Shown piece after piece: positions 657-61,672 of a stretch of DNA of 64,000 bases. Positions within the stretch are counted from its first letter, which is position 1, and each line of letters begins with the position of its first letter. This DNA comes from an uncultured Candidatus Saccharibacteria bacterium (GTDB lineage Bacteria > Patescibacteriota > Minisyncoccia > Phycocordibacterales > UBA12088): the NCBI GenBank assembly GCA_964562615.1, contig CAZLUD010000001.1, forward strand, positions 327,628 through 391,627. The letters are read 5' to 3'. The notes under the pieces are model-generated. The model was not told the DNA's origin. It ran no database searches and saw only the letters and a program-made list of their open reading frames with translations. The position numbers and the translations under genes were made by a program.

Positions 657-1889
657 ATGACGTATTCAGCACATCGTGCCGCGCTCCTGTTGCTTAGCCT
701 TTTCTTGTTGGTTGTTTTTGGCCTGCAATCACTATACGCACCAAAAAGGCAATTAACGATTACAACCCCAGCACAAAATGCAACCACCACGCAAGCGGTA
801 GAAGAAACCCCAATGGATAAAGTTACCGCACTCATCAAAGAAGAAATAGCTGCGACAACCACCACACCACTTTCACTACTACCAACAAAAAAAGAAACAG
901 TACCGATAAAAACAAAGAGTGTAGCCACCACCAACGAACAAAAAGAGCCGACAAAAGAAGAGGCTCCCATCACTCCAGCAACACTAAGTAAAACAGTAAC
1001 CGAAACACTCACCCCTCCCCTTCCGGTGGATATATTTCCTGTGTCGTTTTCAAGTATCAACGAAGACGTTCGCGCGTCACTCGTCAATATTCTTTGCGTA
1101 ACTAAATCTGGTGGGCCGCTTATGCCCATCTCAGGATCAGGCATTATTATCGATTCTCGTGGAGTCATACTCACTAATGCACACATTGCTCAGTACTTAC
1201 TGCTCAAAGATTACATTGTAAAAGACTATGTCGAATGCATTATCCGTACCGGATCACCTGCGTATCCGCTCTACACCACAGAGCTACTGTATGTATCAGA
1301 AGCATGGGTACGCGAAAATGCAGTACAAATTGATAGCGAAAATCCCGTAGGTACGGGAGAACATGACTATGCGCTATTGCGAATTACTGGCACGGTTGAT
1401 GGTGATCCTGTTGGGGCTATTTCACACACTCCGGTAGATACAAAAGAGGTAGCGGTTGATGTTGGTTCTGAGGTGCTTGTCGCTGGATATCCAGCAGGCT
1501 TTGTGGGTGGTATTACCATACAAAAGTCTCTGTATCCTGCATCAAGTGTTACGAGCGTACGTGAGGTGTTTACCTTTGCCACCTCTACCGTTGATCTTAT
1601 CTCTGTTGGTGGAAGTATTGTCGCACAAAAAGGCTCTTCTGGTGGCGCGGTAGTGGGAAGAGACGGCAGATTAAAAGGTCTTGTGGTTACCTCAACACAA
1701 GCAGCATCAACCAATGACCGTGATTTGCGGGCTATTACCCTCTCGCATGTAAACAGAGACATCAAACTATCTACCGGCTACTCTCTTGGTGAATTTCTTT
1801 CAAAAAATCTACCTGCTGAGTCACATCGATTTATAACCACCGTCGCCCCTACCCTCACTCGTCTACTTGAAAATGCGCTCAGGGACTAG
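657..1889 (+). CDS. Secreted trypsin-like serine protease (S1/HtrA-like fold). It has an N-terminal transmembrane/signal segment and a Thr/Pro-rich linker. The C-terminal domain carries the catalytic His motif GSGIIIDSRGVILTNAHIA and the Ser motif GSSGGAVV.
   Basis: The TNAHI and GSSGG motifs match S1 peptidases. The N-terminus is hydrophobic. The exact start is uncertain. Confidence 0.6.
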   Translation: MTYSAHRAALLLLSLFLLVVFGLQSLYAPKRQLTITTPAQNATTTQAVEETPMDKVTALIKEEIAATTTTPLSLLPTKKETVPIKTKSVATTNEQKEPTKEEAPITPATLSKTVTETLTPPLPVDIFPVSFSSINEDVRASLVNILCVTKSGGPLMPISGSGIIIDSRGVILTNAHIAQYLLLKDYIVKDYVECIIRTGSPAYPLYTTELLYVSEAWVRENAVQIDSENPVGTGEHDYALLRITGTVDGDPVGAISHTPVDTKEVAVDVGSEVLVAGYPAGFVGGITIQKSLYPASSVTSVREVFTFATSTVDLISVGGSIVAQKGSSGGAVVGRDGRLKGLVVTSTQAASTNDRDLRAITLSHVNRDIKLSTGYSLGEFLSKNLPAESHRFITTVAPTLTRLLENALRD

Positions 1890-2998
1890 CGCGCATCCTC
1901 GCTACGTATAGCAACCTTTTTGATAAAGGCGTGTAGTACCTCACGGTATCTCTCTAGATCGTTAATATCTACCCACTCATCATCACTATGAGCGCCACCA
2001 CCGCGTGGATACACAAGGAGTGAAGGGATGCCATATCGTGCAAAATGACGTGCGTCTGATGCCCCATGAGAGCGAGTCCACCCCATAGTAATACCGTAAA
2101 GGGTGCGGGCAATGCCAGCAAACAACAGCGCTTCTTTGTTGTGTGGTGAAATGCCACATGCCGGCTCATCCATCACAATGTGGTATGAAACTCTTGGGTC
2201 TTTAGCTACTATTGTTTTTATACCCTCTAAGATAGCCTCTCTATCCGCCTCATCAATCACTCGTATATCAGCAGACACCGATGCTCTGTCTGGTACCTGA
2301 TTTACCGCCTCGCCTCCCTCTATGCGAGAAAAGGTTATCGTTGAGTGCCAATGATGTTCATCATCAGTTATAAATGTCGAACCAAATGCACTGATAGCGT
2401 TAATGGTATTGAGTAGTGTTGTTATTGCATTATCTCCTAACCATGGCCGTGATGCGTGTGCTGAAGCGCCAACCACCTCTATACGGATGCGAATCATACC
2501 TTTTGCAAATTCTTCAAAACACCACTCGCCACCCCCATCTGGAATAATTGCGAGGTCGCCTCTATACCCTTCTTTTTCGAGTAACGCACGAACACCATCC
2601 ATACCCCCCACCTCTTCATCTGCGGTAATCATGAGACCGAGGTCATAGTTTGATGCTTCATCTCCAAGGGAGCGCAAAATATCCACATATATAGCGATAG
2701 CAAATTTCATATCAAATACTCCTCGCCCACGTAACACACCCCTCTCTTGTTGCGGATGAAACAGCGATCTTCCCCCTGGTACCACATCGATATGAGCACT
2801 GAGCCAAAGCTTTGGTGACCTAGTAGCTGAGCTAGTTGCCAGCAATGACTCATGCCCGCCAAAGGCATACCGATGCAGATGTAGTGGTATACCACGCAGT
2901 TGTTCTTCAATATAATCATACGCCCTTGCTATCTCGTCATGATTGCCGGTAACCGTATGAAAGGTGATTAGTTTTTTGAGGGTTTCAACTAGGTACAT
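1886..2998 (-). CDS. M20 family metallopeptidase/deacylase (ArgE/DapE-like).
   Basis: The HIDVVPGG and GRGVFDMK motifs are typical of M20 zinc peptidases. Length is 370 aa. Confidence 0.65.
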   Translation of the reverse strand: MYLVETLKKLITFHTVTGNHDEIARAYDYIEEQLRGIPLHLHRYAFGGHESLLATSSATRSPKLWLSAHIDVVPGGRSLFHPQQERGVLRGRGVFDMKFAIAIYVDILRSLGDEASNYDLGLMITADEEVGGMDGVRALLEKEGYRGDLAIIPDGGGEWCFEEFAKGMIRIRIEVVGASAHASRPWLGDNAITTLLNTINAISAFGSTFITDDEHHWHSTITFSRIEGGEAVNQVPDRASVSADIRVIDEADREAILEGIKTIVAKDPRVSYHIVMDEPACGISPHNKEALLFAGIARTLYGITMGWTRSHGASDARHFARYGIPSLLVYPRGGGAHSDDEWVDINDLERYREVLHAFIKKVAIRSEDAR

Positions 2999-3033
2999 AT
3001 AAGGACTGTAAACTATTTATTACGGTTTGAAAA

Positions 3034-3065
3034 CAAAACCACACCCTGTGAGGGGTGTGGTTTAC
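3034..3065 (-). terminator. Intrinsic terminator hairpin AACCACACCC-tgtgag-GGGTGTGGTT, followed on the minus strand by TTTTGTTTTC. It lies downstream of ORF 3071-3298.
   Basis: Perfect 10-bp stem plus a U-tract, seen directly. Confidence 0.6.
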
Positions 3066-3070
3066 GAACA

Positions 3071-3298
3071 TCAGCAAGTGTTTTTATTTTTGGGACTCAT
3101 GGATGTCAATCTATCGAGTAAAATTCTCATAGCATTTTCTCTATCTGAATGAATTGCTGCTTCAGCAACCGCAGCTGCAGTTGCTGGATTACGAATAACA
3201 AACTGAACAAATGGGACAGCATCTGATCCTCCACCCAAAAGCCTTGAGAACATGTCAAATATAGCAAATTGTGCATGGTCAAGATCTTGTACTTGCAT
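3071..3298 (-). CDS. Hypothetical small protein (75 aa).
   Basis: ORF with a downstream terminator. No recognisable motif. Confidence 0.3.
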   Translation of the reverse strand: MQVQDLDHAQFAIFDMFSRLLGGGSDAVPFVQFVIRNPATAAAVAEAAIHSDRENAMRILLDRLTSMSPKNKNTC

Positions 3299-3562
3299 TG
3301 TTGACCCCCTTTCAAAGAACTTCGCGTTTTTGCGACCAAGCCAATTGCGACTTGGAGCGTGTGTCTATGTGCCATGGGCACACACTCCAAAGAACAATTT
3401 GCACAAGAGCCCCTTTTGGAGGGGCTCTTGTTGATGTTTCTTAAGATTTATTTCAACTAAAAGCACCCTCCGTGTTGGAGTGTAATCAGTACGAGGGTAA
3501 TCAGCGCTATTTGCTTCATAAAAATATAGTACCGAAGCAAAAAATACTGTCAAGAATAAAGA

Positions 3563-3608
3563 GAAACGGCGCCCGAAGGCGCCGTTGAAGTGGGGCATTA
3601 TGCCCCGT
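3563..3608 (-). terminator. Two adjacent hairpins (AAACGGCGCCCGAAGGCGCCGTT and GTGGGGCATTATGCCCCGTG), followed on the minus strand by TTTCTCTTTATTCTT. Probable terminator of ORF 3623-4054.
   Basis: Seen directly. Confidence 0.5.
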
Positions 3609-3622
3609 GATAATACCAAGCA

Positions 3623-4054
3623 CTATTGTCTATCTGGCGGGAGCACAACCGTATGAGCTTCTCTAAAAAGCACCACATCGTCCCTTCCGTCGAGATCGGC
3701 GCCAGATACCCTAGTTCCTGCACGTATATCAATCGTTGGAAAAACTGGTAGCCTTGTACTGGGTGACATCACCTGCCCACCTTCTGTTGGTGGTATTGAT
3801 CTGGTGGAGTGACCTCCTCCACCACTACCCCAACCGATTCGGGGATTTATCCTTGCAGATCCGCCAGGGATTAGCTTCCCCGGGACTGGGGAATCAACGA
3901 AACTGAAACCATTTTTATCAGCCACGAAAGCCTCCTTGCGTCGCCAGGGTCGACGCGCTGTTTCCACTATTACCCCCTGGAGTGTGATCACTACGCAATA
4001 ACCACACTTCAGGGGGTAATACCTTAATAACCTCTTATTTTCCTCAAAGAACAA
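3623..4054 (-). CDS. Hypothetical Gly-rich small protein. The ORF-track start at 4054 is a TTG codon. A GTG at 3925, preceded by a perfect AAGGAGG Shine-Dalgarno 7 nt upstream, is a more plausible start and would give ~100 aa (3623-3925).
   Basis: Manual codon check of the minus strand. No family recognised. Confidence 0.3.
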   Translation of the reverse strand: MFFEENKRLLRYYPLKCGYCVVITLQGVIVETARRPWRRKEAFVADKNGFSFVDSPVPGKLIPGGSARINPRIGWGSGGGGHSTRSIPPTEGGQVMSPSTRLPVFPTIDIRAGTRVSGADLDGRDDVVLFREAHTVVLPPDRQ

Positions 4055-4225
4055 TCCATCTATACGACAACCAGCCCCTGTGTGGGGCCGGTTGAATGTT
4101 TTTGATGAAGCAATCTATTACACATCAAACCGGCCCGAATGATTTCCGGCAAACCAGAGCGATGTATATGCAAAAAACTGTTGCATATACACATGCTATC
4201 TCTAGCTATGTTATATGTCAACAAA
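3926..4225 (-). promoter_or_regulatory. Sigma70-like promoter on the minus strand (-35 TTGACA at 4217-4222, 17-nt spacer, -10 TAGCAT at 4194-4199). It is followed by a ~270 nt hairpin-rich leader ahead of the putative GTG start at 3925. This is a candidate cis-regulatory leader or riboswitch.
   Basis: The promoter hexamers have ideal spacing. The leader contains an 11-bp perfect hairpin (TGTATATGCAA/TTGCATATACA), a CAACCGGCCCC/GGGGCTGGTTG hairpin and a 17-bp near-perfect stem (TTACCCCCTGAAGTGTG/CACACTCCAGGGGGTAA). Confidence 0.35.
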
Positions 4226-4245
4226 AAGCGAGCCATGTGGCTCGC
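4222..4245 (-). terminator. Hairpin GCGAGCCACATGGCTCGC plus TTTTTG on the minus strand; terminator of ORF 4261-4518.
   Basis: Seen directly. Confidence 0.5.
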
Positions 4246-4260
4246 ATCATCTATGCGCTT

Positions 4261-4518
4261 TTATATGGCGCCTTGTGAGGTGTCTATTCGTATAGTACTC
4301 ACGTTTGGTAATCCTTTGAGCACCTCTCTTAAAGAAGTAATATCCACCTGCTTGTTGCCAGTATAGGCAAAAAAGGGCATTTTTGCTCCTTCAGCAAAAA
4401 GACAAAAGTGACGGCAATCACGAACATTGTTCAGTATTGTTGTGGTGGTGTCTTGAGAATTGTCTTCAATAACCACAAGGAAGCTTTGCATCATTTTTAC
4501 TCCTGCTGCCGACAGCAT
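4261..4518 (-). CDS. Hypothetical 85-aa protein (MMQSFLVVIEDNSQDTTTTILNNVRDCRHFCLFAEG...). Family not recognised.
   Basis: ORF lying between a structured GC-rich leader and a terminator. Confidence 0.35.
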   Translation of the reverse strand: MLSAAGVKMMQSFLVVIEDNSQDTTTTILNNVRDCRHFCLFAEGAKMPFFAYTGNKQVDITSLREVLKGLPNVSTIRIDTSQGAI

Positions 4519-4554
4519 AATACGACAAAAAATACGCTATGCCTACTACCATAA

Positions 4555-4800
4555 ATGAAAGAGCGGCCCCAAAGTTGGGGCCGCTCGGAGGGGGTAAAAC
4601 CCCCTCCTCGACGTGTGACCTTCGTTGGTCAGGCGCTGCCGGTCGAGTGCCTGGCCGACGGGTTGGTGCCGGTGGTGTCGACCCTGCGCGCCGACGGGTC
4701 GGTGCCGAGATTCGCCATGCTGATGACAGAAAACGGAGGATGCTTCGTTCGAGTCATTGCCATTCTCCATGAGCTAGGGTGGGGCTCTATGCCCCAATCC
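4555..4800 (-). ncRNA. GC-rich structured element of ~250 nt, far above the local GC content. Its minus-strand 3' end has two stacked perfect hairpins (GGAGGGGGTTTTACCCCCTCC then GAGCGGCCCCAACTTTGGGGCCGCTC) followed by TTTCATTT, about 40 nt upstream of ORF 4518-4261. It is a candidate riboswitch/leader or a small RNA; the identity is unknown.
   Basis: Hairpins seen directly. There is an internal 19-nt direct repeat GCCGACGGGT(T/C)GGTGCCG x2. The overlapping ORFs look like random translation of GC-rich sequence. No match was found to the RNase P P4, tmRNA or SRP motifs I could recall. Confidence 0.3.
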
Positions 4801-9343: not shown

Positions 9344-9835
9344 CTATGGTATAAGTACGGCACGAGGGTTTATAAGGTGTACATGAAAATGATCAGGGAT
9401 AGATTTAAATTTTTTTGTCGCTTCGATTACATACTGATAGGTATCAGCAATGTGTGTATGTTTAATCTCAATCAATTCCTCCTTCTCTTCTTGGGTTAGC
9501 CCTCGTTCGTCTATGTGACGAATTGGAATAAGCATGTGGTGTACTTCAGCAATCTTTCCGTACGGGAAGGCATTGATAACTATCCGCCAATGAATAAATG
9601 TGTGAATCGCTGGTTCATCACTACAAAGCGGACATCCAGCATCTACTAGTAGCGACTTACGACGAGCTCTATATGCTTCTTCTACCTCGGGTAGTCTCAG
9701 TGATACTGGTGTATACGACATAGTCTGAGTATACATCAATGTTGGTAGTAGATAAAAATAGTGGTCTTGTAACGCTTTTATATCAAACAACACTCGATTC
9801 GGGGCGCCCTTGGCCAAAATATTATCGTGCCACAA
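9344..9835 (-). CDS. HIT (histidine triad) family hydrolase. The annotated N-terminus (MWHDNILAKGAPNRV) is encoded by a repeat unit, so the true start is probably an internal Met.
   Basis: HFHVHLI histidine-triad motif; CPLC zinc-type motif. The first ~15 codons lie in repeat R2, which is duplicated at 10048-10080. Confidence 0.55.
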   Translation of the reverse strand: MWHDNILAKGAPNRVLFDIKALQDHYFYLLPTLMYTQTMSYTPVSLRLPEVEEAYRARRKSLLVDAGCPLCSDEPAIHTFIHWRIVINAFPYGKIAEVHHMLIPIRHIDERGLTQEEKEELIEIKHTHIADTYQYVIEATKKFKSIPDHFHVHLINPRAVLIP

Positions 9836-10126
9836 GGGTACTTCAAGAAATATAGTCGCGTTGCTCCTTATTTCTTTGGTCGCTCGAAGCGTTGCTTCTC
9901 TCTCTGTATTTTGTCGGGGCGCCGAGAAGGGGTCAGCTCACTAAGTACATTGAGTCGCAAACTCCTCAATGTACTAAGTGGCTCCTCCCCGGCCTCGCAG
10001 CCCCATTTCTCACGTTGTTCGAAATGGGGACCCGCTGCTCCGGCTTTCGATTCTCGGCGCCCTTGGCCAAAATAGTATCGCTCGAAGCGTTGCTTCTCTC
10101 TCTGTATTTTGTCGGGGCGCCGAGAA
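9795..10126. repeat. tRNA-Pro-linked composite repeat. A 46-bp direct repeat (9883-9928 and 10081-10126) contains the tRNA-Pro 3' end plus 30 nt of trailer. A ~33-bp direct repeat sits at 9795-9826 and 10048-10080. An inverted copy of the tRNA T-arm/acceptor (TTTCGATTCTCGGCGCCC, 10045-10062) faces the direct copy (GGGGCGCCGAGAA, 9915-9928) across a 120-nt hairpin-rich core. The segment 9827-9882 is an inverted copy of 10915-10975.
   Basis: Aligned by eye. Core hairpins: ACTAAGTACATTGAG/CTCAATGTACTAAGT and CCCCATTTC/GAAATGGGG. Confidence 0.6.
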
Positions 10127-10182
10127 TCGAACTCGGGCTACACGGTCCCAAACCGTGCGTACTACCTCTATACGACGCCCCG
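10112..10182 (-). tRNA. tRNA-Pro (anticodon TGG).
   Basis: Minus-strand cloverleaf: acceptor CGGGGCG/CGCCCCG, anticodon stem CACGG/CCGTG with loop TTTGGGA, T-arm CCGAG-TTCGATT-CTCGG. 71 nt; no CCA encoded. Confidence 0.8.
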
Positions 10183-10253: not shown

Positions 10254-10742
10254 CTAGAAAGAGACATTCTCAAAGAATTCACACTTTGCTAGTTTTTTAT
10301 CTTCATCTATATAGACCGTAACAAGATCAACCTGCCACTCCCCCACCTCACGCTCTTCCAGATACATTTCTATGGTGCTAAGTAATTTTGCCAGCTTGTG
10401 GCGAGTCATGTTTTCTTCAGGTCGTATACCCGGTACTGACTGGACATACAATCCATTAGACTCGGCAATAGTACATACAGCACTCTTTACTTCTATAAAA
10501 TGAGTTACTCCCCCGCTCATGGTTACAACATCTATCTCTCCATGATTAGTACGAATATTTCTATCCACCACATCGTGACCTCTATCTAAAAGCCACTTCA
10601 CGGCCAAATCCTCACCTAATTTTCCTGTCTTTTGAGCGGTAGTTGTACCATAGTTCCACATATTCATAGTATAAGCCATATTCTGGTATTTTGGTAGAAA
10701 AAGTCCCTTTATAAGAGACCAAAAAAGTCGTCCTTTATACAC
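10254..10742 (-). CDS. YraN/UPF0102 family endonuclease-like protein (restriction-endonuclease-like fold).
   Basis: Pattern GEDLAVKWL...GHDVVDRNIRTNHGEIDVV...THFIEVKS resembles the YraN consensus (GE..A..YL...G...L.RN.R...GEIDLI....FVEVK.R). The start is probably an internal Met. Confidence 0.5.
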   Translation of the reverse strand: MYKGRLFWSLIKGLFLPKYQNMAYTMNMWNYGTTTAQKTGKLGEDLAVKWLLDRGHDVVDRNIRTNHGEIDVVTMSGGVTHFIEVKSAVCTIAESNGLYVQSVPGIRPEENMTRHKLAKLLSTIEMYLEEREVGEWQVDLVTVYIDEDKKLAKCEFFENVSF

Positions 10743-10879
10743 TAATCCCCAGAGTTATCCACAGTTTTGACCTATTCTGTGTATTTCTTTTAGGCTGTTT
10801 CGGCACGAATTATACCGAGGATAGGCGCAATAATAGGATGAAAGAATAAAGCAAAATATATCCCTAATGCTCCCGCTCT

Positions 10880-11175
10880 CTCCTCTTATTTAGTGTGCGA
10901 CCTAATTTTGTTGAGCGACCAAAGAAATAAGGAGCAAAGCGACTATATTTCTTGAAGTACCCCTTGTGGCACGTAGCGATTACAAAATGGAAGTACTCTC
11001 TGTGGTGCGACCTAATTTTTACGACCGTAGGGAGATAAAAATGGAAGTACTCTTTGTGGTGCGACCTAATTTTGTTGAGCGACCAAAGAAATAAGGAGCA
11101 AAGCGACTATATTTCTTGAAGTACCCCTTGTGGCACGTAGCGATTACAAAATGGAAGTACTCTTTGTGGTGCGGG
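10880..11175. repeat. Tandem array of two ~115-bp units (approx. 10893-11009 and 11056-11172) separated by a truncated 54-bp unit. Each unit ends with the motif AAAATGGAAGTACTCT(C/T)TGTGGTGCG. The array begins with a duplicate of the tRNA-Gly(GCC) trailer (CTCCTCTTATTTAGTGTGCG).
   Basis: Direct repeats aligned by eye. This is not CRISPR-like: the units are long and the spacer is itself repeat-derived. Confidence 0.7.
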
Positions 11176-11309
11176 TAGGGAGAATCGACCCGCTTTTGCT
11201 AAGCTCGCAATGCTCGCTAAGCACGCTGGTCGCGCCTCGCCGACAATTTTACTTCGCTTTGCTACGTAAAATCGTAGACCGGCTCCGGCGTTCGATTCTC
11301 CCTACCCGC
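11169..11309. repeat. tRNA-Gly(GCC)-linked palindromic element. Perfect 18-19 bp terminal inverted repeats (GTGCGGGTAGGGAGAATCGA ... TTCGATTCTCCCTACCCGC) are copies of the T-arm/acceptor 3' strand of the adjacent tRNA-Gly, and they flank a ~100 nt core. In tRNA sense, the distal arm reads ...CCCGCACCA, ending in a CCA that the genomic tRNA lacks.
   Basis: Seen directly. The core is homologous to the Lys-linked element at 61377-61526 (shared blocks GCTAAGCAC, TCGCCGACAATTTT, CGTAAAATCGTAGACC, GCTCCGGCGTTCGA). Confidence 0.7.
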
Positions 11310-11354
11310 CTAAAATATATCGTCAAAGCTCCGCTTTCTCCTCTTATTTTAGTG

Positions 11355-11425
11355 TGCGGGTAGGGAGAATCGAACTCCCGTCTGCTCCATGGCAAGGAGC
11401 CGTCATACCACTAAACTATACCCGC
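11355..11425 (-). tRNA. tRNA-Gly (anticodon GCC).
   Basis: Minus-strand cloverleaf: acceptor GCGGGTA/TACCCGC, anticodon stem GCTCC/GGAGC with loop TTGCCAT, T-arm GGGAG-TTCGATT-CTCCC. 71 nt; no CCA encoded. Confidence 0.8.
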
Positions 11426-27052: not shown

Positions 27053-28090
27053 ATGAATGAATCCATACTTCCAAGTAAGCAGTTTATTATTACCGTGATT
27101 GTCATTACGGTACTACTCGGTGGTGGCATCGCGGTATTTTTGAGTACACGAGAATCAGCAAGTAAATTTTTTGCCGAATCAAACGAAAAAGAGATGCGAG
27201 AAATCGCAGAAAAGCTGGTTGCCTCTGACGAAGATGAAGATGGGCTTCTTGATTGGGAAGAATCTCTTTGGAAAACTGATGTAAAAAACCCTGACACTGA
27301 TAGCGACGGCACTTCAGATGGCGAAGAAATCCGCATCGGAAGGGATCCACTTAAACCAACTCCTGGTGATGAAATTACTGTTCAAAGTATTGAGGTATTT
27401 AGAGATACTGCGGTAACTGATGCGCAAATTAAAAACAGCAACCTAACCGCTGAATTTGCCAAAAACTTTTTTGTTGAATACGCAAAAACCAAAGAGGCAG
27501 GTTTACCAGTTGGGATCATGGGAGCAAGTATAGAAAAGGTAGAGAACTTGATTCCGCAAGACCAGTACGAGAATAGAGAGCCTCTTTTTACAGAAGAAGA
27601 TATTTTGATAGCGCCATCTGAAGATAATTACTCCCTACGCGAGTATGGAAATGCTGTTGGGCGTGCATTTGAAAATCACCCGGTTGTAGGGGAGAACATG
27701 CTTGATGTTCTCTATCGAGCGTTGCGTAGCGGAAATAAAGCTGAGCTCGACAAACTACGAGATGCTGCTTCTTCAGTAAGCCTGCTCGCTGAAGAGATTA
27801 TTTCGATTCGAGTCCCTGAACCTCTCGTAGAAAATCATCTTGATTTGCTTAATGCTCTAGCATTTTTTAATGAGATACTTGTCGCATTTGGCAATACATA
27901 CGAAGATCCGCTTGGTGCAACTATTGCAATGACCTACTACCCTAAGACCGCTAAAGAATTAGCAATTATCGGGATATCAACTGCAAAGTACCTTGAGTCG
28001 AGAAATATTGTATACACACGAAATGACCCTGGACATGTATTCAATGAACTACTTGTAATTTATAAGAGATCGCCGAATCTATTTATATGA
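27053..28090 (+). CDS. Hypothetical protein with an N-terminal transmembrane anchor and an acidic Asp-rich segment (DEDEDGLLDWEE...DTDSDGTSDGEE).
   Basis: Hydrophobic N-terminus. Ca-binding-like D-x-D repeats are possible. Confidence 0.35.
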   Translation: MNESILPSKQFIITVIVITVLLGGGIAVFLSTRESASKFFAESNEKEMREIAEKLVASDEDEDGLLDWEESLWKTDVKNPDTDSDGTSDGEEIRIGRDPLKPTPGDEITVQSIEVFRDTAVTDAQIKNSNLTAEFAKNFFVEYAKTKEAGLPVGIMGASIEKVENLIPQDQYENREPLFTEEDILIAPSEDNYSLREYGNAVGRAFENHPVVGENMLDVLYRALRSGNKAELDKLRDAASSVSLLAEEIISIRVPEPLVENHLDLLNALAFFNEILVAFGNTYEDPLGATIAMTYYPKTAKELAIIGISTAKYLESRNIVYTRNDPGHVFNELLVIYKRSPNLFI

Positions 28091-29808
28091 AATCAGTTGC
28101 TAGGGTAGTCACATCTCTTCTGACTCGCTACGTAGCGCCATCTACCATAATAATGGCGTTATTTGCTCCTTCAGTATTTGTTATTGCAACCCCACAAAAA
28201 ACTGAGGCTATTTTTGGATTTGGTGACACTGTAGTTGAGGTGGGTGCAAACCTATATACAAATGTTGCCAATACCGTGGAAGCAGTTTGGGCAACCCTCA
28301 AGGAAGCATCGCTTGATGGTATTGCGTGGTACCTCGCTAAGTTAGTAATACAACGAATGACCGTTGAGATTATCAACTGGATCAATAGAGATTTTGAGGG
28401 CTATCCACAATTTGTTAATAATCTTGGCGTATTTCTTACTGATGTAGTAGACCAAGCCACCGGGGCATTTATACGCGAAAACAATCTTGAGTATTTATGT
28501 AACCCACTGAGTATTCGTATTGCGCTGTTAACGTATCAATACCAACCCATTCAACAGAGGTATTCGTGTACGCTTTCTCAAGTGGTAAACAACGTAGACT
28601 CATTCATACAAGGAAACTTTGCGGAGGGAGGTTGGACGGGATGGTTTTCACACGCCACCATCCCTACCAATAACTTGCCTGGGCAATATCTTGTCATACA
28701 AGGAGAGCTTGTTAAGTACGCCAACAAAAAAGAAGAGAATCAAAAAAACTACCTTTCCTTTGGGCAAGGCATGTTCTCAGACCTTTCGTTTGAGTGGTGC
28801 CAATCAGTAGAAAATACTGAAGGGGTTCCAGATGGATCAGGGGGCGTTCGTTATCAAACCGGTATGACAAGAGATGATTGTCAAATAAAAACACCAGGTA
28901 AATTGATAACAGATCAACTAAGTTGGGTCACGACAAGCCCACTCAGACAACAAGAGCTTGCTGATGAACTAAACGAAGCGATTTCAGCAATCCTCAGTAC
29001 GCTCATGAGTAAATTGCTCTCTGATGGTCTTGCATACCTTACCTCAAGTGGTCTTGGAAGAGGTGCAGCTGGCTCTTCGTATGATGATCTTTTGCGAGAA
29101 GATATTGCACGCCAACAAGAGCGCGTAACAGAAGACATTATCCTTCAGATTGATCAACAAATTGAAGAGGAGCTTGCGCTTGGTAGAGAGCTTGGCTGTT
29201 ATGGCGAAGATCCTGGAGACGGTGATGGAGGGGGCGGGGGTGATGGAGGGGGAGGTGATATTGGTGGAAATGAATTTCACGATGTGCCTATTGGTGACCG
29301 ATCAATACTTCCTGATACCACCACATTCTCAAATATCAGATATACCCCAGCTGATTCATACGCAGCGTACCAAACATCAGGACTAGAACCTCTTACGCCA
29401 ACAGAGTACTATCAAGAACTCACCCTTGCAGGACTCATCGACAGTCCAACCAGCACTACCTGGAGTGAGAATTATACCCTTAGAGAGGTTGGTATCGACG
29501 AGGGCGCAATCATTATTGAGAGAACCGGCGAAGATGCATATCGAGTACTATATGACGCTGACGGAGACGATGTGCGAGAAGTTATCGCAACATCAAGAGA
29601 AGTAGAGGGTCAGTCTGGTACATACACCTTTACCCGCGTCACCGGAGAAGACCTTGGATTTCAAACGCTTGGGGTAAGAAGTAGTGTTGCGGCAGGAGCA
29701 GTAAATGAGGCCTTGAGAGAGTACTACCTAATTAACGAAAACCCTCCTCAAACAAAACTGGAGCCAGTTGGAGGTACAGGCTCAAATGGCACAACAGGGA
29801 ATCGTTAG
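28087..29808 (+). CDS. Hypothetical secreted or membrane-anchored protein (573 aa) with a Gly/Asp-rich linker (GDGDGGGGGDGGGGDIGG).
   Basis: N-terminal hydrophobic segment. Translationally coupled to the upstream gene. Confidence 0.35.
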   Translation: MKSVARVVTSLLTRYVAPSTIIMALFAPSVFVIATPQKTEAIFGFGDTVVEVGANLYTNVANTVEAVWATLKEASLDGIAWYLAKLVIQRMTVEIINWINRDFEGYPQFVNNLGVFLTDVVDQATGAFIRENNLEYLCNPLSIRIALLTYQYQPIQQRYSCTLSQVVNNVDSFIQGNFAEGGWTGWFSHATIPTNNLPGQYLVIQGELVKYANKKEENQKNYLSFGQGMFSDLSFEWCQSVENTEGVPDGSGGVRYQTGMTRDDCQIKTPGKLITDQLSWVTTSPLRQQELADELNEAISAILSTLMSKLLSDGLAYLTSSGLGRGAAGSSYDDLLREDIARQQERVTEDIILQIDQQIEEELALGRELGCYGEDPGDGDGGGGGDGGGGDIGGNEFHDVPIGDRSILPDTTTFSNIRYTPADSYAAYQTSGLEPLTPTEYYQELTLAGLIDSPTSTTWSENYTLREVGIDEGAIIIERTGEDAYRVLYDADGDDVREVIATSREVEGQSGTYTFTRVTGEDLGFQTLGVRSSVAAGAVNEALREYYLINENPPQTKLEPVGGTGSNGTTGNR

Positions 29809-29817
29809 AACAGCAAT

Positions 29818-31596
29818 ATGAATGCAACAAGATCAATCATAATTTCATCGCTTCTGATCATCAGTGCGTACGCATCTTCTGTTTGGATATATTCCCCAAA
29901 GCTCTCTGCTCAGACACCTCCTCAAGAACCAGTTACCTGTGAAGAAGTAGACACCACCATCGCACAGCTCACCGCCCTTCGAGCACGAGCAGAGGCAGCA
30001 GACACTCCAGAGGAGATGCAGGCAGTAGTGGATGAATTTAATAGACTAGAGACACATAATGGTAACGATTTGGTGGTAGCACAACAAGAAAATCAACTTG
30101 AAGATAGAAGAGCATATTTAATAAGTAGAATAGAGGACACAAAGGAGGTTGATGCAGCACAAGGTGGAAGAAATGCAGAAGAGCTTGATGAGCTACTTGC
30201 ACGAGCAGAGGCTGCAGATGACTTTACCGAGCTTGGACGAGTAGAAGGAGAGCTTGGTGAGATACGAGGGAGATTGGGGCTTAGCGGTGGAGGAAGTGGT
30301 GGGGGTGGGGGAGGAGGGGGAGGTGGAGTAATTGGTGGAGGAGGCGATGGATCATGGGCTGGAGGAGTGCTTGATGGCAGTGGCAAAAACAACAGAGCGC
30401 CCGTTCCTGCATTTACAAGAACAGTTGTGCTTGGGCCAGGAGATGATATACAAGGGGCAATTAATAGTGCTACCCCAGGCACTGACATCCAACTCAAAAG
30501 TGGTACGTACAATTACTCCAACCTAAGCATAAGCGGAAAGGGTGGAAATCCGAACGCATGGATACGGCTTGGCAATGCTCCTGGAGAACATCCTATTCTT
30601 AGGCCGACAGGAGGATATGCAACCCTAAACGTGGCAGGCGGTTCGAGCTATATTCTAATTGAGGGACTGGAAATAAATGGGAGTAGGGTGGGAACAACAC
30701 TTCCTGATGGGACATATATTGGATCATGGAATGATATGCTTGCCTACTCTAATAGGAGTTGCAGTAATATCGGATACCATTGCAATCAGGGTATAATGCT
30801 CGGTTGCGGAGGCTGTAATACCAATCAAGGGCACCACATTGTCGTTCGAGATAATGTTACCCACGACTTTGGAGGCTCTGGTATTAGCACCTTTGGTGTT
30901 GATTATGTGATTATTGAAGACAATGTTTCTTTCAATAATGGCAATTTCTCTCGTTATGGGGAGAGTGGTATATCTGCTGGATTTCCAGCACTGGTAGGGG
31001 GAGGAAGCATGAGTGACTACGGCTTTATTGTAAGGAGAAACACCACCTACGATAATAAGCAATACTTGGGGTCAATAGACTGTGGTTGTGGCCCAGGTAT
31101 TACCGATGGTAACGGCATAATTCTTGACGGTATGGATCATAATGGTGCATACAGAAGAGTTCTTGTTGAGAGTAATCTTTCGTACAACAATGGTGTTGAG
31201 GTGCCTGGGCAGGGTGTGCATGGGTCAGGAATGCATTCAGTCGATTCTTCTAATGCAGAGTTCATAAATAACACCGCGTATGGTAATGCAGCTGCGCAGA
31301 TATTTGCATGTTGCGCCTCAAACAACAATAAGTTTTACAACAACATAGCAATAGGCAATAGGCCGTTGTTTGCTGCCCACGGTGTCCCTTTTACTGGAGG
31401 ATGTAACATATCGAGTGGTTCTGAAAATGTACCTACTACTGTTACTGACCCAATGTTTGTAAACCCTAGCGCTGGAGACTTTAGCTTGCGGGCGGGATCT
31501 CCGGCAATAAACGCCGCATGCGGACAAACCGCATCAAGCGACCTTAATGGAGCCCTCGCAAATGGGGCAAAAGATATCGGTGCTATAGAAATGTAG
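29818..31596 (+). CDS. Secreted protein with signal peptide, shared coiled-coil N-module, Gly-rich linker (GGGSGGGGGGGGG) and a C-terminal right-handed parallel beta-helix domain (pectate-lyase/polysaccharide-lyase-like repeats).
   Basis: Recurrent N-x-G/NNG-type beta-helix coil motifs (VRDNVTHDFGGSGIST, IEDNVSFNNGNFSRYGESGISAG, VESNLSYNNGVEVPG, INNTAYGNAAAQ). Confidence 0.5.
   Translation: MNATRSIIISSLLIISAYASSVWIYSPKLSAQTPPQEPVTCEEVDTTIAQLTALRARAEAADTPEEMQAVVDEFNRLETHNGNDLVVAQQENQLEDRRAYLISRIEDTKEVDAAQGGRNAEELDELLARAEAADDFTELGRVEGELGEIRGRLGLSGGGSGGGGGGGGGGVIGGGGDGSWAGGVLDGSGKNNRAPVPAFTRTVVLGPGDDIQGAINSATPGTDIQLKSGTYNYSNLSISGKGGNPNAWIRLGNAPGEHPILRPTGGYATLNVAGGSSYILIEGLEINGSRVGTTLPDGTYIGSWNDMLAYSNRSCSNIGYHCNQGIMLGCGGCNTNQGHHIVVRDNVTHDFGGSGISTFGVDYVIIEDNVSFNNGNFSRYGESGISAGFPALVGGGSMSDYGFIVRRNTTYDNKQYLGSIDCGCGPGITDGNGIILDGMDHNGAYRRVLVESNLSYNNGVEVPGQGVHGSGMHSVDSSNAEFINNTAYGNAAAQIFACCASNNNKFYNNIAIGNRPLFAAHGVPFTGGCNISSGSENVPTTVTDPMFVNPSAGDFSLRAGSPAINAACGQTASSDLNGALANGAKDIGAIEM
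29954..30320 (+). repeat. Copy 1 of a 367-bp near-identical intragenomic repeat encoding the shared N-terminal module. It pairs with 31741-32107.
   Basis: Nucleotide alignment by eye; only a handful of mismatches. Confidence 0.85.
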
Positions 31597-31607
31597 ATTG
31601 TTGCTTC

Positions 31608-33065
31608 ATGAAAAACGCAATCAGTATAAGTAGTTTTGTATCACTCGTAGTGATCGCGCTATCGTGCGTGAGCATCATTCCAACAAGAAGTAGTGCGCAA
31701 ACACCACCGCAAGAACCGATTACTTGCCAAGAAGTTTCTTCCACCATCGCACAACTCACCGCCCTTCGAGCACGAGCAGAGGCAGCAGACACTCCAGAGG
31801 AGATGCAGGCAGTAGTGGATGAATTTAATAGACTAGAGACACATAATGGTAACGATTTGGTGGTAGCACAACAAGAAAATCAACTTGAAGATAGAAGAGC
31901 ATATTTAATAAGTAGAATAGAGGACACAAAGGAGGTTGATGCAGCACAAGGTGGAAGAAATGCAGAAGAGCTTGATGAGCTACTTGCACGAGCAGAGGCT
32001 GCAGATGACTTTACCGAGCTTGGACGAGTAGAAGGAGAGCTTGGTGAGATACGAGGGAGATTAGGGCTTAGTGGTGGAGGAAGTGGTGGGGGTGGGGGAG
32101 GAGGGGGCACAGTAGGTGGAGGAGGCGGGGGCACCACCACACCAGGAACAGGGGTGGGCTCAGGTACCGCTGCGGGTACACCAACAGACACTGGCTTTGC
32201 TCCAGCAGGGTATACACTTGCGTGGAATGATGAATTCAATTCTCTTAGCTTAGGAAGTGGTTCAGCGTTTAGATGGACGCCATTTGATACGCTTGCTGCA
32301 AATGCTGGATATGATGCAAAAGGAAGAATACTTGCAAGTAACAGCTCTGATGCTATATGGGTTGCTGATTACGAAACAAATGCAGGTGGGACACGAACGT
32401 ATGGTGACGCATTTAAGGCAGCCGGCACCTACGGTGAGGGGCCATTCTTCCATGAGGTAAGTGATGGCGCACTTGCTATGCGTGCGTATCCAGTACCAAG
32501 CTCAGTACGCAACGAATTTATTGCGTATGGATGGCCGCAGGGTGCTCCATACGCCGCAGGTGGAATATTTGGATCACTCTCACATACCCAAACATACGGC
32601 TACTATGAAGTGCGGCTGCGTGTAAATTCAATAACAAGAGGCCAACATTTTGCGCTTTGGCTACTCCAAGACGACCTTGCATGGCCTCCTGAGATAGACA
32701 TGCTTGAGGTTATTGGTGAAAATCCTCAGTTTTATCACACTACCGTACACGGCGAAGGGCCAAATGGCTCTGACCCAACCACCTCATTTAAGCTGCTTCC
32801 AGCAGGAGGGAGCGGGACATGGCACACCTACGGATTTTTGTGGACACCTGAAAGTATGCGATTTTTTGTCGATGGAAAGGAGTATTTCTTAAGAGAAAAT
32901 TATGGGGAAGGGGCAGAAATAGGAACATTACCTAACTTTGTAAACAAGCCAATGTACCTCCTTGCAACCTGGGAAATGGCAAGCTATTGGCCAGGAGATC
33001 CTGATGCAACTACCGTGTGGCCAGCAGAGGTTGAGCTTGATTACGTCCGCATCTACAAACCATAG
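31608..33065 (+). CDS. Secreted protein: the same N-module plus Gly-rich linker as 29818-31596, fused to a glycoside hydrolase family 16-like (beta-glucanase/laminarinase-type) domain.
   Basis: GH16-like motifs WNDEFN and catalytic E-I-D-M-L-E (PPEIDMLEVIGE). Confidence 0.55.
   Translation: MKNAISISSFVSLVVIALSCVSIIPTRSSAQTPPQEPITCQEVSSTIAQLTALRARAEAADTPEEMQAVVDEFNRLETHNGNDLVVAQQENQLEDRRAYLISRIEDTKEVDAAQGGRNAEELDELLARAEAADDFTELGRVEGELGEIRGRLGLSGGGSGGGGGGGGTVGGGGGGTTTPGTGVGSGTAAGTPTDTGFAPAGYTLAWNDEFNSLSLGSGSAFRWTPFDTLAANAGYDAKGRILASNSSDAIWVADYETNAGGTRTYGDAFKAAGTYGEGPFFHEVSDGALAMRAYPVPSSVRNEFIAYGWPQGAPYAAGGIFGSLSHTQTYGYYEVRLRVNSITRGQHFALWLLQDDLAWPPEIDMLEVIGENPQFYHTTVHGEGPNGSDPTTSFKLLPAGGSGTWHTYGFLWTPESMRFFVDGKEYFLRENYGEGAEIGTLPNFVNKPMYLLATWEMASYWPGDPDATTVWPAEVELDYVRIYKP
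31741..32107 (+). repeat. Copy 2 of the 367-bp near-identical repeat (pairs with 29954-30320).
   Basis: Nucleotide alignment by eye. Confidence 0.85.
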
Positions 33066-47070: not shown

Positions 47071-48453
47071 TTGCATGAAGAGACAGCTATAATAGGGGAC
47101 ATGCACACTCAAAACAATAGAGAGCTCTGGCAAAATATCCTTACTGAAATAGAGCTGACTATTCCCGGACCACATTTTAAGACATGGTTTAAAGATACCT
47201 CAATAGTAAAAATAGAAGACGGCGTAGCAACCATTGGTGTTCCTACAGAAGTTGCAAGAGAGTGGCTTCAAAAGAAGCATAGTAAGTTACTTCTTAAATC
47301 ACTACGAAGCCATCTTGATTCTGCTCGGTCTCTTGAGTTTATCGTACATAAATCAAACAAGCTCAAGCAACAAGCACCTACATCACGTAGTCCATTTTTT
47401 GCCCAAGAGTTGCCGCTCGGTGAGCATTACGTAAACAGAAGTGATAACCTCAATCCAAAATACGTATTTGAAACCTTTGTGGTTGGACCATTTAACGAAA
47501 TCGCCTTTTCTGCAGCACAGGGTGTGGTAAAAGAGCCTGGAATTACCTACAACCCATTGTTTATATATGGAAATACTGGATACGGTAAAACACACCTCAT
47601 CCAAGCTATTGGTAATCAAATAAAAAAGCAGAGCCCGAACAGAAAAGTATTCTATGTCACGAGTGAAAAATTCACTATGGATTTTGTAAACGCTCTTCAA
47701 AGCAACTCCGTTAATGCATTCAAAGAAAAGTATCGTCAATATGATGTACTTATCATGGATGATATTCAGTTTTTTGCTCAAAAAGAAAAAACACAGGAAG
47801 AGCTCTTTCACTTGTTTAACTCACTTTATCAAAACAATAAGCAGATAATCTTCTCTTGCGACAAGCACCCAAACTATATTCAGGATCTGGAAGATAGATT
47901 GAAGTCTCGATTTGCACAGGGAATGATTATTGATATATCAGAGCCAGATAGCGAGTCGCGTATCGCCATCCTTAAAACCAAGGCAGCACAACACAATTTT
48001 CACATAGAAGACTCCATGCTTACCTTTATTGCGTCACTTGTAGACGGCAACATACGAGACCTCGAGGGTATGCTTAATGCTGTTATTTGCCAAACACAAC
48101 TACGTGGTAGAGCGCTTAATCCCGGAGAAATAAAACATCTTATCAAGGATAGTTCGAGACCAAAAAGAGCCATCTCTCCAAAGGAGATAGTAAAGCGAGT
48201 AGCGGAGTTTTATGATCTTGAAGAAAATGCTATTTATGAAAAGACAAGAAAGAAGGAAGTAGTTCGTCCTCGACAACTCATTATGTACATCCTGAGAGAG
48301 GATTATAACGTGTCATATCCACTTATCGGTGAAAAGTTAGGAGGGAGAGATCACACCACTGTTATTCACTCATGTGAAAAAATCAAAAAAGATATTCAAC
48401 ATAACAGCGTATTACAACAAGAATTGCAGCATATACGCATGATGTTGAAATAG
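47071..48453 (+). CDS. dnaA: Chromosomal replication initiator DnaA.
   Basis: AAA+ Walker A (GNTGYGKTHL), sensor regions, C-terminal DNA-binding domain (QLIMYILRE...GGRDHTTVIHSCEKI). Confidence 0.9.
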   Translation: MHEETAIIGDMHTQNNRELWQNILTEIELTIPGPHFKTWFKDTSIVKIEDGVATIGVPTEVAREWLQKKHSKLLLKSLRSHLDSARSLEFIVHKSNKLKQQAPTSRSPFFAQELPLGEHYVNRSDNLNPKYVFETFVVGPFNEIAFSAAQGVVKEPGITYNPLFIYGNTGYGKTHLIQAIGNQIKKQSPNRKVFYVTSEKFTMDFVNALQSNSVNAFKEKYRQYDVLIMDDIQFFAQKEKTQEELFHLFNSLYQNNKQIIFSCDKHPNYIQDLEDRLKSRFAQGMIIDISEPDSESRIAILKTKAAQHNFHIEDSMLTFIASLVDGNIRDLEGMLNAVICQTQLRGRALNPGEIKHLIKDSSRPKRAISPKEIVKRVAEFYDLEENAIYEKTRKKEVVRPRQLIMYILREDYNVSYPLIGEKLGGRDHTTVIHSCEKIKKDIQHNSVLQQELQHIRMMLK

Positions 48454-48689
48454 TGTGGATATATATGTGGATAACAAATGAACAGTACTGTGGAAAAGAG
48501 ATGAATGAGAAAGGTGATAACTCGAGGACAACACAACTAGTACATTTCAAAAATAGGTATACGAGCCGTATGAACACTTATACACAAACATCTATGCATA
48601 AATACCTACCTGTGTAGCTATGGTTAGAAGTTATCCACGTATCCACACCCCTAATAATAAAACTATCTTTATAAGCAAAAAAACTCACT
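48454..48689. promoter_or_regulatory. Probable oriC. The DnaA-box cluster lies between dnaA and dnaN: TGTGGATAT (48455-48463), a perfect TGTGGATAA (48467-48475), TTATCCACG (48631-48639) and TATCCACAC (48640-48648). A further near-consensus box, TTATACACA, sits at 47024-47032 upstream of dnaA.
   Basis: 9-mer matches to TTATCCACA or its complement seen directly. AT-rich spacer. Classic dnaA-dnaN intergenic origin. Confidence 0.65.
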
Positions 48690-61308: not shown

Positions 61309-61526
61309 ATGGAAGTACATTTGTGGTGCGACCAAAAAATAATGAGCTCTGCGAATATATTTTTTGAAGTACTCTTGTGGTGCGCCCGGGAGCTCGGTCA
61401 CTAGTTGCTAACCATTTTGTACGCTTCGCTTCAAAATGCTAAGCACTTGCGACCCCGACTCGGCGACAATTTTGCTCCATTTCATTTCGCAAAATCGTAA
61501 ACCGCCTCCGTCTTTCGAACCCTACG
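61309..61526. repeat. tRNA-Lys-linked element. It has two copies of the motif (ATGGAAGTACATTTGTGGTGCG at 61309-61330; TTGAAGTACTCTTGTGGTGCG at 61364-61384). The 5' arm is a copy of the tRNA-Lys 3' end including CCA (GTGGTGCGCCCGGGAG, 61377-61395). The ~115 nt core is homologous to the Gly-GCC element core. The distal arm is a degenerate inverted T-arm (TTTCGAACCCT, 61511-61525).
   Basis: Aligned by eye with 11169-11309. Confidence 0.6.
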
Positions 61527-61596
61527 CAAAGCACGAAGGTGCTTTGCTCCACGGGGCACCTAATCAAAATGGAACACCTACGTGTTCTATTTTTCA

Positions 61597-61672
61597 TGGT
61601 GCGCCCGGGAGGGTTCGAACCTCCGACCAATGGCTTAAAAGGCCACTGCTCTACCAGCTGAGCTACAGGCGC
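61597..61672 (-). tRNA. tRNA-Lys (anticodon TTT) with genomically encoded CCA.
   Basis: Minus-strand cloverleaf: acceptor GCGCCTG/CGGGCGC, D-arm GCTC-AGCTGGTA-GAGC, anticodon loop CTTTTAA, T-arm GGAGG-TTCGAAC-CCTCC, 3' ACCA. Confidence 0.85.

Follow-up and report, generated by a model that had tools for sequence, protein, structure and literature searches.

The 64-kb window analyzed here, the whole stretch of DNA taken from a contig of an uncultured Candidatus Saccharibacteria bacterium, harbors on its minus strand a gene for tRNA-Gly(GCC) and, behind it, a palindromic element built from the 3' end of this same tRNA. Read in the sense of the tRNA, the locus runs from the gene end (...GGGAGTTCGATTCTCCCTACCCGCA) through a 44-nt trailer (B) into the antisense sequence GCGGGTAGGGAGAATCGAAC (proximal arm, a'), a core of ~100 nt, and the sense sequence TCGATTCTCCCTACCCGCAC (distal arm, A). 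The distal arm (11169-11188) was a direct copy of the tRNA 3' end at 11354-11373 (20/20 positions), and 11287-11309 was an inverted copy of it (23 nt, 96%, at a distance of 46 nt). The arm segments 11171-11188 and 11292-11309 were 100% complementary over 18 nt, with 103 nt between them, and form a perfect 18-bp helix. An earlier note on this DNA had described a 141-bp element with inverted-repeat arms that correspond to the tRNA 3' end and enclose a core of ~100 nt; the element lies at 11169-11309, and all structural statements of the note were confirmed. Both strands of the element folded far more stably than shuffled sequences, the minus (tRNA-sense) strand at -76.6 kcal/mol (z -7.7) and the plus strand, more weakly, at -68.6 kcal/mol (z -6.2). 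Furthermore, the ends of trailer B are palindromic; therefore, the tRNA 3' end, B, and the antisense arm make up a single hairpin of ~80 nt, which was folded with 29 pairs on one axis and an apex 21 nt past the tRNA end. The element is best delimited as the trailer hairpin together with the antisense arm, the core, and the sense arm, rather than as the 141 bp alone.

The feature is real and unannotated, and it is both widespread and conserved. The exact core pattern CGACAATTTT..AAAATCGTARACC was run on species-representative genomes and on metagenomes. In the former, 14 loci were found, and those with a label were all Patescibacteria (Saccharibacteria, Paceibacterota, Lloydbacteria, and one single-cell genome). 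The metagenomes contained 20 loci, 3 of them by chance. Comparison loci from other genomes or metagenomes are designated here by L and a number; L016, L020, and L030 were rejected as family members because they are chance pattern matches inside coding DNA. A covariance model (R1) that was trained on 20 cores and applied with a cut-off of E<0.01 identified 49 copies within 300 kb from ~30 independent Patescibacteria assemblies, all of them in the tRNA sense. The upstream neighbor, at a distance of 34-86 nt, was a tRNA (~20 anticodon types), a tmRNA, or a preceding tandem unit, save for five of the 49 copies that lay too close to the upstream end of the analyzed DNA for a neighbor to be called. 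The sole array without an upstream tRNA was located in L017 (13154-14232), where a tmRNA gene (Rfam RF00023, 72.6 bits) was followed by four tandem units of mixed core subtypes, the arms of which copied the tmRNA 3' end. Unit 4 of L017 carried a paired change in both arms (ACTCCC/GGGAGT, compared to ATTCCC in the tmRNA). There are thus further copies beyond that of Gly(GCC), and their arms matched the neighboring gene at every locus, tmRNA included, as the check proposed in the earlier note demanded.

The core was found to be a Y-shaped three-way junction composed of P1 (the two arms paired), an Ha/P2 arm, and a P3 arm. The Ha/P2 arm started with helix Ha (3-4 bp), which was followed by a purine internal loop (GGA/GA) and then by helix P2, in which one G.U pair is conserved and a bulge of 4 nt reads UCUA or UUUA; in the window Gly(GCC) copy, which has the same G.U pair, the bulge reads GUCU (UCUA in the register of the family alignment). 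The P3 arm contained CUUAG/CUUAG with a U.U mismatch, and ended in a variable tip. A K-turn was considered for the GGA/GA internal loop and rejected on geometry (3 x 2 unpaired bases, by inspection). Among 45 distinct copies, 95.7% of the cells of the core pairing were paired, and 28/32 pairs were altered on both sides. The covariation score of the core was 0.463 in an alignment that had been fitted to the model, whereas slid partners reached no more than 0.077, and shuffles 0.153. The strand-specific features of the core all belonged to the tRNA-sense strand: G.U exceeded A.C by 67 to 17, or by 36 to 16 when the conserved pair was left out, and GCGAAGC occurred 13 times in the sense and never in the antisense orientation (CGAAG, 31 vs. 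2). The core thus possesses the conserved one-strand secondary structure with covariation by which a structured non-coding RNA family is recognized. On the other hand, the short P2 tips were mostly GNA triloops by inspection. GNA triloops and d(GCGAAGC) are classic minihairpins of DNA rather than RNA; what folds may therefore be single-stranded DNA and not RNA.

The arms, in contrast to the covarying core, were merely copied. In the tRNA sense, the layout of a unit was tRNA (..TT/CGAAT-A) - B - a' - core - A - (B) - (a'), in which the distal arm started at C56 of the T loop at nearly every locus and a' terminated at the complement of T54. The direct repeats flanking a unit comprised 12-67 nt of the tRNA 3' end and the trailer, and a short target-site duplication was absent. 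Among 371 aligned arm positions, 317 were identical in the tRNA, a', and the distal arm; 38 differed in a' only, 14 in the distal arm only, and at just 2 did the arms agree with each other against the tRNA. Mismatches in P1 (13 G.U, 10 A.C, and 18 other) showed no wobble or strand bias, and the arm helix decays neutrally, without compensation or a preference for G.U. The loci had only 6-9 nt of arm sequence from the T loop in common, and the remainder was locus-specific. The core therefore appears to be the selected part, whereas the arms appear to be templated locally and then to decay. Trailer B was also locus-specific, and was nearly always a palindromic, terminator-like hairpin between an A run and a T run. 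Since a' prolongs the palindrome of B, the tRNA 3' end, B, and a' form one long hairpin, which measured ~82-86 nt with its apex 21-24 nt past the tRNA end in ~20/29 loci. Several subfamilies carried an extra hairpin inside a' near the acceptor/T-stem boundary; that of the window Lys element was identical to that behind tRNA-Tyr in L002, although the flanking arm segments were tRNA-specific. An origin of the trailer hairpin by a fold-back event was rejected, because distal copies may include B with its whole palindrome, and their sequence departs precisely at the point at which a' would begin (L032 and window Pro).

The earlier note had also reported the same architecture at three other tRNA genes of the window, and this is true for Pro, Lys, and Gly(TCC). 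Four of the five tRNA genes in the window therefore carry the element, and tRNA-Arg is the one without it. The covariance model matched 61389-61523 behind tRNA-Lys (105 bits) and 9924-10055 behind tRNA-Pro (51 bits) in addition to Gly(GCC), and with its filters off produced zero matches outside these three tRNA tails in the full 64 kb. The Gly(TCC) copy (85-193) belongs to a divergent subtype that was recognized through its architecture and its homology to the orthologous L039 copy. The coordinates of all elements and their parts are given in Table 1. Between the tRNA-Pro and tRNA-Gly(GCC) element clusters lies a gene of the UPF0102 family (YraN-like predicted nuclease; 10254-10742), which was syntenic in all relatives examined.

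Table 1. Positions of the tRNA-tail elements, their parts, and associated repeats in the window.
Feature	Position	Strand	Description
tRNA-Gly(GCC)	11354-11425	minus	ARAGORN; Rfam tRNA, 65.8 bits; CCA not encoded; master copy for both arms
Trailer B (44 nt)	11310-11353	minus	Palindromic ends CTAAAATA / TATTTTAG
Proximal arm a'	11290-11309	minus	GCGGGTAGGGAGAATCGAAC in tRNA sense; exact antisense of tRNA positions 54-72; 5' strand of helix P1
Core arm 2	11233-11290	minus	Helix Ha (CGCC/GGCG), purine internal loop GGA/GA, P2
Core arm 3 (P3)	11187-11231	minus	GACCAGCG..GCUUAGC..hairpin..GCUUAGC..GCGGGUC; conserved CUUAG/CUUAG U.U mismatch
Distal arm A	11169-11188	minus	TCGATTCTCCCTACCCGCAC in tRNA sense; starts in T loop; 3' strand of P1
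Second-repeat array	10895-11168	minus	Between distal arm and its trailer copy; repeat comparison; source of apparent CCA
Displaced copy of trailer B	10850-10894	minus	~85% identical to 11310-11353
Element behind tRNA-Pro(TGG)	9794-10110	minus	tRNA 10111-10182; repeats and covariance model, 51 bits; fold z -8.4
Pro element, parts	B 10063-10110; a' 10046-10062; core 9929-10045; distal arm 9914-9928	minus	
Pro element, second B and a'	B 9880-9913 and 9810-9827; a' 9794-9809		Second B split by 52-nt insertion 9828-9879; second a' degenerate
Element behind tRNA-Lys(TTT)	61378-61596	minus	tRNA 61597-61672, CCA encoded; covariance model, 105 bits
Lys element, parts	B 61562-61596; a' 61514-61561; core 61393-61513; distal arm 61378-61392	minus	a' with embedded conserved hairpin
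Element behind tRNA-Gly(TCC)	41-226	minus	tRNA 227-298; divergent; missed by covariance model R1
Gly(TCC) element, parts	B 194-226; a' 181-193; core 94-180; distal arm 85-93; B copy 52-84; a' 41-51	minus	Second a' degenerate

The tRNA-Gly(GCC) gene ends in ...CCCGCACAC, and the distal arm of the element in ...CCCGCACCA. From the CCA after the distal arm, the earlier note had considered that the copy might derive from a mature, CCA-tailed tRNA. The CCA is indeed present there and absent from the gene, but it is not part of the element copy. The sequence that follows the distal arm (CCACAAAGAGTACTTCC...) is the opening of a second repeat family, the start of which (CCACAARGRGTACTTC) was found in 5 copies at 10954-11169, compared to 0.02 expected. 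Units of this family start with CCACA[AG][AG]G[AG]GTACTTC, contain a hairpin with an A/T stem and the loop ..AGTCGCTTTGCTCC.., and end in ..GGTCGCA. Elsewhere in the window they were located at 61311-61377 beside the Lys element and, inverted, at 9828-9879; in other genomes, the hairpin module of the family was found at the P3 tip (L021 and L025) or inserted at TT^CGAA (L009 and L002). The last unit of the Gly(GCC) array ends in ...GGTCGCA and is followed by CACTAAATAAGAGGAG..., which is the copy of the tRNA-Gly trailer. The resumption of the trailer copy after the array places the insertion of the array at ...CCCG^CAC... and makes the CCA a junction. Throughout the family, distal arms run into the trailer of the gene, and CCA is confined to loci whose gene encodes it; the L039 gene carries CCA and its a' carries TGG, whereas the distal arm has neither. 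Judging by these comparisons, the arms are copies of the gene, not of the mature tRNA.

The order of genes Gly(TCC) ... Pro - UPF0102 - Gly(GCC) - Arg - cca was conserved in relatives with a 63-67% identical CCA-adding enzyme, and the presence or absence of the element across sister genomes, which the earlier note had raised, was borne out, as orthologous sites were full, empty, or occupied by a' only. At the Gly(GCC) site, the window contained a full element, L039 a full element of another core subtype, and L042/L043 the trailer and a' only, whereas the site was empty in L040 and L038 (the comparison with L038 covers this site only). The Pro site was occupied in the window and empty in L039, L040, and L042/L043. 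At the Gly(TCC) site, the window and L039 shared the same divergent subtype, and L040 and L042/L043 had a canonical-like subtype. One core subtype (Ha CGCC/GGCG, P3 GCGACCAGCG..AAAAGCGGGT) was found behind different tRNAs in different genomes, namely, Gly(GCC) in the window, Gly(TCC) in L040, Asp in L005, Ser in L009, and Tyr in L002. Tandem arrays contained mixed subtypes, and individual units can have their own trailer; two strains that are 99.8% identical differed by one tandem unit. Behind tRNA-Tyr in L002 (4955-5120, minus), two P3 arms of different subtypes stood in tandem, which points to recombination between subtypes. These loci thus combine a structured, strand-specific core and T-loop-bounded arms copied from the neighboring gene with a turnover in which units at the tails of tRNA and tmRNA genes are gained, lost, or amplified and subtypes are exchanged.

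Behind tRNA-Leu (gag), L015 (8020-8122) and L029 contained a core-less a'-A remnant that could be an excision footprint or a precursor state. It is composed of the tRNA, a terminator, a' with an internal hairpin, and, directly adjoining, a partial sense arm (..ACTTGAA-A-CAAGTCC..). The same two strains, which are 99.8% identical, differ by a 3.2-kb island that is present in L029 only (1540-4731, corresponding to 9951-9960 in L015). The island encodes a DUF4238 protein and carries the remnant of a serine-recombinase zinc ribbon; it is inserted at the last ~10 nt of tRNA-Val, so that it separates the tRNA from the hairpin that trails it, and is accompanied by a direct repeat of 10 nt. Assemblies appear to be broken by the elements: the short-read contigs L035, L036, and L037 of the closest relatives, whose cca gene is 100% and 89% identical, all stop within the tRNA/repeat region, 136-280 nt upstream of cca. 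The possibility that the strand of the element follows the lagging-strand template was not supported, because tRNA-Lys at 61.6 kb runs against the skew and the gene orientation around it, and its element trails the tRNA all the same. GC skew and gene orientation in the window flip at ~12-14 kb, and single perfect DnaA boxes occur at 10755 and 13730, the former being kept upstream of UPF0102 in relatives. Six DnaA-like boxes were clustered at 48454-48647, between the open reading frames (ORFs) 47071-48453 and 48690-49790. At 28087-33065, three paralogous ORFs lie side by side; they share blocks of 300 nt that are 95% identical, and contain Gly-rich repeats of the GGN type.

Comparison with databases did not place the element in a known family. 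Rfam was run at gathering scores over the window and with relaxed thresholds at the window locus (E<=10) and at the tmRNA array of L017 (E<=1); taken together, these runs produced only tRNA, tmRNA, and chance microRNA-like matches, and assigned no family to the element. The exact core pattern had no match in viral contigs, nor did blastn of the core in phage and plasmid collections. No protein family recurred within 3 kb of the elements, and Pfam analysis of the flanking ORFs indicated only housekeeping genes and an Xer-like recombinase that was syntenic in all relatives. An autonomous relative with the same ends was found neither in the 300 kb of loci nor beside the window copies. An IS200/IS605-type origin (insertion 3' of a TTCGAA-like target, subterminal hairpins) was considered, but no transposase was seen and the locus-specific arms would be left unexplained. 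No description of such an element was found in the literature, the coverage of which was incomplete.

The reading that we favor, at about even confidence, is that these sequences are a family of non-autonomous, strand-specific palindromic repeat elements confined to the tRNA and tmRNA 3' flanks of Patescibacteria. We class it as an undescribed type of element, the mechanism of which is inferred. The core would be a selected, selfish part that is recognized as a folded single strand, either of DNA or of read-through RNA, and it would reach new tRNA and tmRNA tails at the universally conserved T-loop sequence through recombination or replication template switching. Both arms would then be written from the neighboring gene by hairpin-templated DNA synthesis (quasipalindrome correction), which would be nucleated first by the palindromic trailer to yield a', and then by the arm helix to yield the distal copy. 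In a read-through transcript, a' would pair with the distal arm (P1) and would thereby be prevented from invading and unzipping the tRNA. Template switching homogenizes the arms of inverted repeats (PMC7202029, PMC8604942) and is stimulated by high transcription (PMC3820800). Rather more tentatively, the family may represent a self-customizing class of elements, in which the Y-shaped core docks at the T loop of any tRNA or tmRNA gene and both arms are rewritten from that gene, which would yield a folded mimic of its 3' end; such a class would be either mobile DNA that propagates with no need of a transposase and uses its target as template, or a read-through RNA that provides neighbor-specific tRNA-end mimics or antisense guides in the tRNA metabolism of ultra-small bacteria.

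Several points weigh against this reading. In the loci analyzed, there was no sign of a mobilizing enzyme, of a free form or an excision junction, or of an autonomous relative. The fixed tRNA-sense orientation (50 of 50) is not predicted by a symmetric DNA-copying model, and fits co-transcription equally well. The conserved hairpin embedded in a' (window Lys and L002 Tyr) is hard to reconcile with arms that are rewritten wholesale from a template. Cores were ~90%+ identical between class-level lineages in a sample that the search pattern biases toward similar copies, and this identity could mean strong functional constraint, not horizontal spread. The occupancy of 4/5 tRNA genes of the window in a streamlined genome suggests that the elements are tolerated or useful. 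Moreover, RNA and single-stranded DNA are indistinguishable by sequence alone. The unexplained orientation and embedded hairpin are the main reasons for keeping an RNA gene and recombination of a folded single strand as rival explanations.

A serious rival, although a less probable one, is that the element is a cis-encoded structured non-coding RNA (a "tRNA-tail RNA") that is transcribed by read-through from the tRNA promoter. Its three-way junction would be functional, for example, as a platform for protein binding or processing, and the arms would close the junction and link it to its tRNA, with a role in 3'-end processing or read-through quality control, or as a decoy for tRNA 3'-end enzymes. 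Its constant co-orientation with the tRNA is consistent with such a role, as are the strong covariation, the G.U bias, and the conserved unpaired bases of the core. A consensus scan predicted promoters upstream of the tRNAs and none between the tRNA and the element, and the apex loops of the trailers are often of RNA type in the tRNA sense (GAAA, GAGA, and UUCG). The high occupancy in a streamlined genome (4/5 tRNAs) and the vertical retention of the Gly(TCC) subtype in the window and L039 point in the same direction. However, at most loci the element is separated from the tRNA by a terminator-like hairpin and its T run, orthologous tRNAs manage without the element, and arrays, fragments, and chimeric copies occur. 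In addition, P1 decays neutrally, the P2 tips are mostly GNA triloops or GCGAAGC, the hallmarks of DNA minihairpins, and no Rfam family matched. The suggestion of the earlier note that the element is a stable minihelix-type RNA is also weakened by the neutral decay of the arm helix and by the T-loop bases, which are paired away. A miniature integrative element is unlikely; the unit A-B-a'-core would be inserted by a tyrosine recombinase with crossover in the T loop, and the folded single-stranded A-B-a' hairpin would rebuild a double-stranded tRNA att site as in CTX phage or integron attC. Direct repeats of the 3' part of the tRNA or tmRNA gene, starting in the T loop, flank each unit, the tmRNA gene is used in addition to tRNA genes, and the mixed-subtype arrays with unit-specific trailers resemble successive insertions. 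Direct repeats of this kind are typical of islands integrated at tRNA and tmRNA genes (PMC4383910) and of crossover within the T loop, as in mycobacteriophage Ms6 (PMC1762012). A genuine 3.2-kb island was present at the tRNA-Val 3' end in L029, and Xer-like recombinases were encoded in every genome examined.

Nevertheless, the integrative explanation meets with no integrase or cargo in or near the units, no circular or empty-site junction was seen, and viral, phage, and plasmid collections contained no matches. The same core is associated with ~20 tRNAs, although integration into a new tRNA would swap in a foreign 3' strand, and the identity block differs locus by locus. The earlier idea of a mobile or recombinogenic unit for which tRNA 3' ends serve as att-like sites stands in substance, in view of the co-variation of the arms, the use of tmRNA, the mixed arrays, and the variable occupancy, but not as a classical att/integrase system. 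A SINE-like retro-copy of a mature CCA-tailed tRNA is very improbable and already contradicted: the CCA behind the window Gly(GCC) distal arm, which is lacking in the gene and had favored it, begins an inserted repeat, with the real trailer copy 275 nt further on; other copies carry the gene trailer instead of CCA; L039 has the opposite pattern; and just the last ~20 nt of the tRNA were copied, one copy being inverted. An artefact of assembly or amplification, such as an inverted chimera, which the earlier note had allowed for, can be excluded almost completely. Although short-read contigs of close relatives break in the Gly(GCC)/cca region, the architecture was shared by ~30 independent assemblies, including two chromosome-level genomes and one single-cell genome, and the copies are separated by compensatory substitutions.

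A large part of bacterial diversity belongs to Patescibacteria, whose genomes are tiny and streamlined, and still four of the five tRNA genes in the window carry the element. If the element is mobile DNA, its ends are copied from the target instead of being fixed, a mode of spread for which no described precedent was found; if it is RNA, it constitutes a widespread unannotated RNA family linked to tRNA 3' ends. Either reading accounts for the assembly breaks at tRNA loci and supplies a covariance model for annotation. Both readings also imply that a duplicated tRNA 3' end need not mark the boundary of an integrated island in these genomes.

The element shares with islands and prophages that integrate at tRNA and tmRNA genes (Islander-type; Ms6) the targeting of the 3' part of the gene, a displaced 3'-end repeat that starts in the T loop and marks the far boundary, and tandem accretion at one gene (PMC4383910, PMC1762012). 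Unlike these islands, its units are 140-210 nt long, contain no ORF, integrase, or cargo, and include an extra inverted copy of the att segment; one core serves ~20 anticodon types and tmRNA rather than a single-gene att, and the repeat often spans the whole trailer. In quasipalindrome template-switch mutagenesis, a hairpin likewise serves as the nucleus from which imperfect inverted repeats are perfected and extended, above all where transcription is high (PMC7202029, PMC3820800, PMC8604942); however, this process is known for point and patch mutations, and has not been described for a mobile element that gains locus-specific arms. Like miniature inverted-repeat transposable elements (MITEs) and repetitive extragenic palindromes (REP) or their mosaic arrangements (BIME), the element is short, non-coding, multi-copy, and hairpin-forming, has inverted termini, and occurs in arrays and fragments that break assemblies. 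On the other hand, its terminal inverted repeats are variable and copied from the adjacent tRNA, and it lacks the short target-site duplication of MITEs; it differs from both MITEs and REP in its fixed orientation to the gene and its covarying internal three-way junction. REP and BIME are genome-wide extragenic palindromes of 20-40 nt with a GTAG head, whereas copies of the present element were found only behind tRNA and tmRNA genes. With tRNA-like RNAs (the tmRNA domain, viral tRNA-like structures, and YrlA Y RNA), it has in common a 3' strand that corresponds to the acceptor and the 3' strand of the T stem and, in some subfamilies, a side hairpin near the acceptor/T boundary; unlike them, its T loop is paired away, an NCCA end is generally absent, the helix is without compensation, and there is no Rfam match. 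Integron attC sites and the attP(+) of CTX phage are imperfect palindromes of ~60-150 nt in which one folded strand is functional, with conserved mismatches or bulges and a variable or branched tip. The R and L boxes and the R''/R' sites (RYYYAAC / GTTRRRY) of attC are absent from the element, its outer stems are tRNA sequence, and no integron integrase, attI, or cassette ORFs were found in its context. Nevertheless, like attC and CTX attP(+), the element, known here from its sequence, is a strand-specific folded palindrome with a conserved bulge, a U.U mismatch, and a G.U pair, and it also occurs in arrays.

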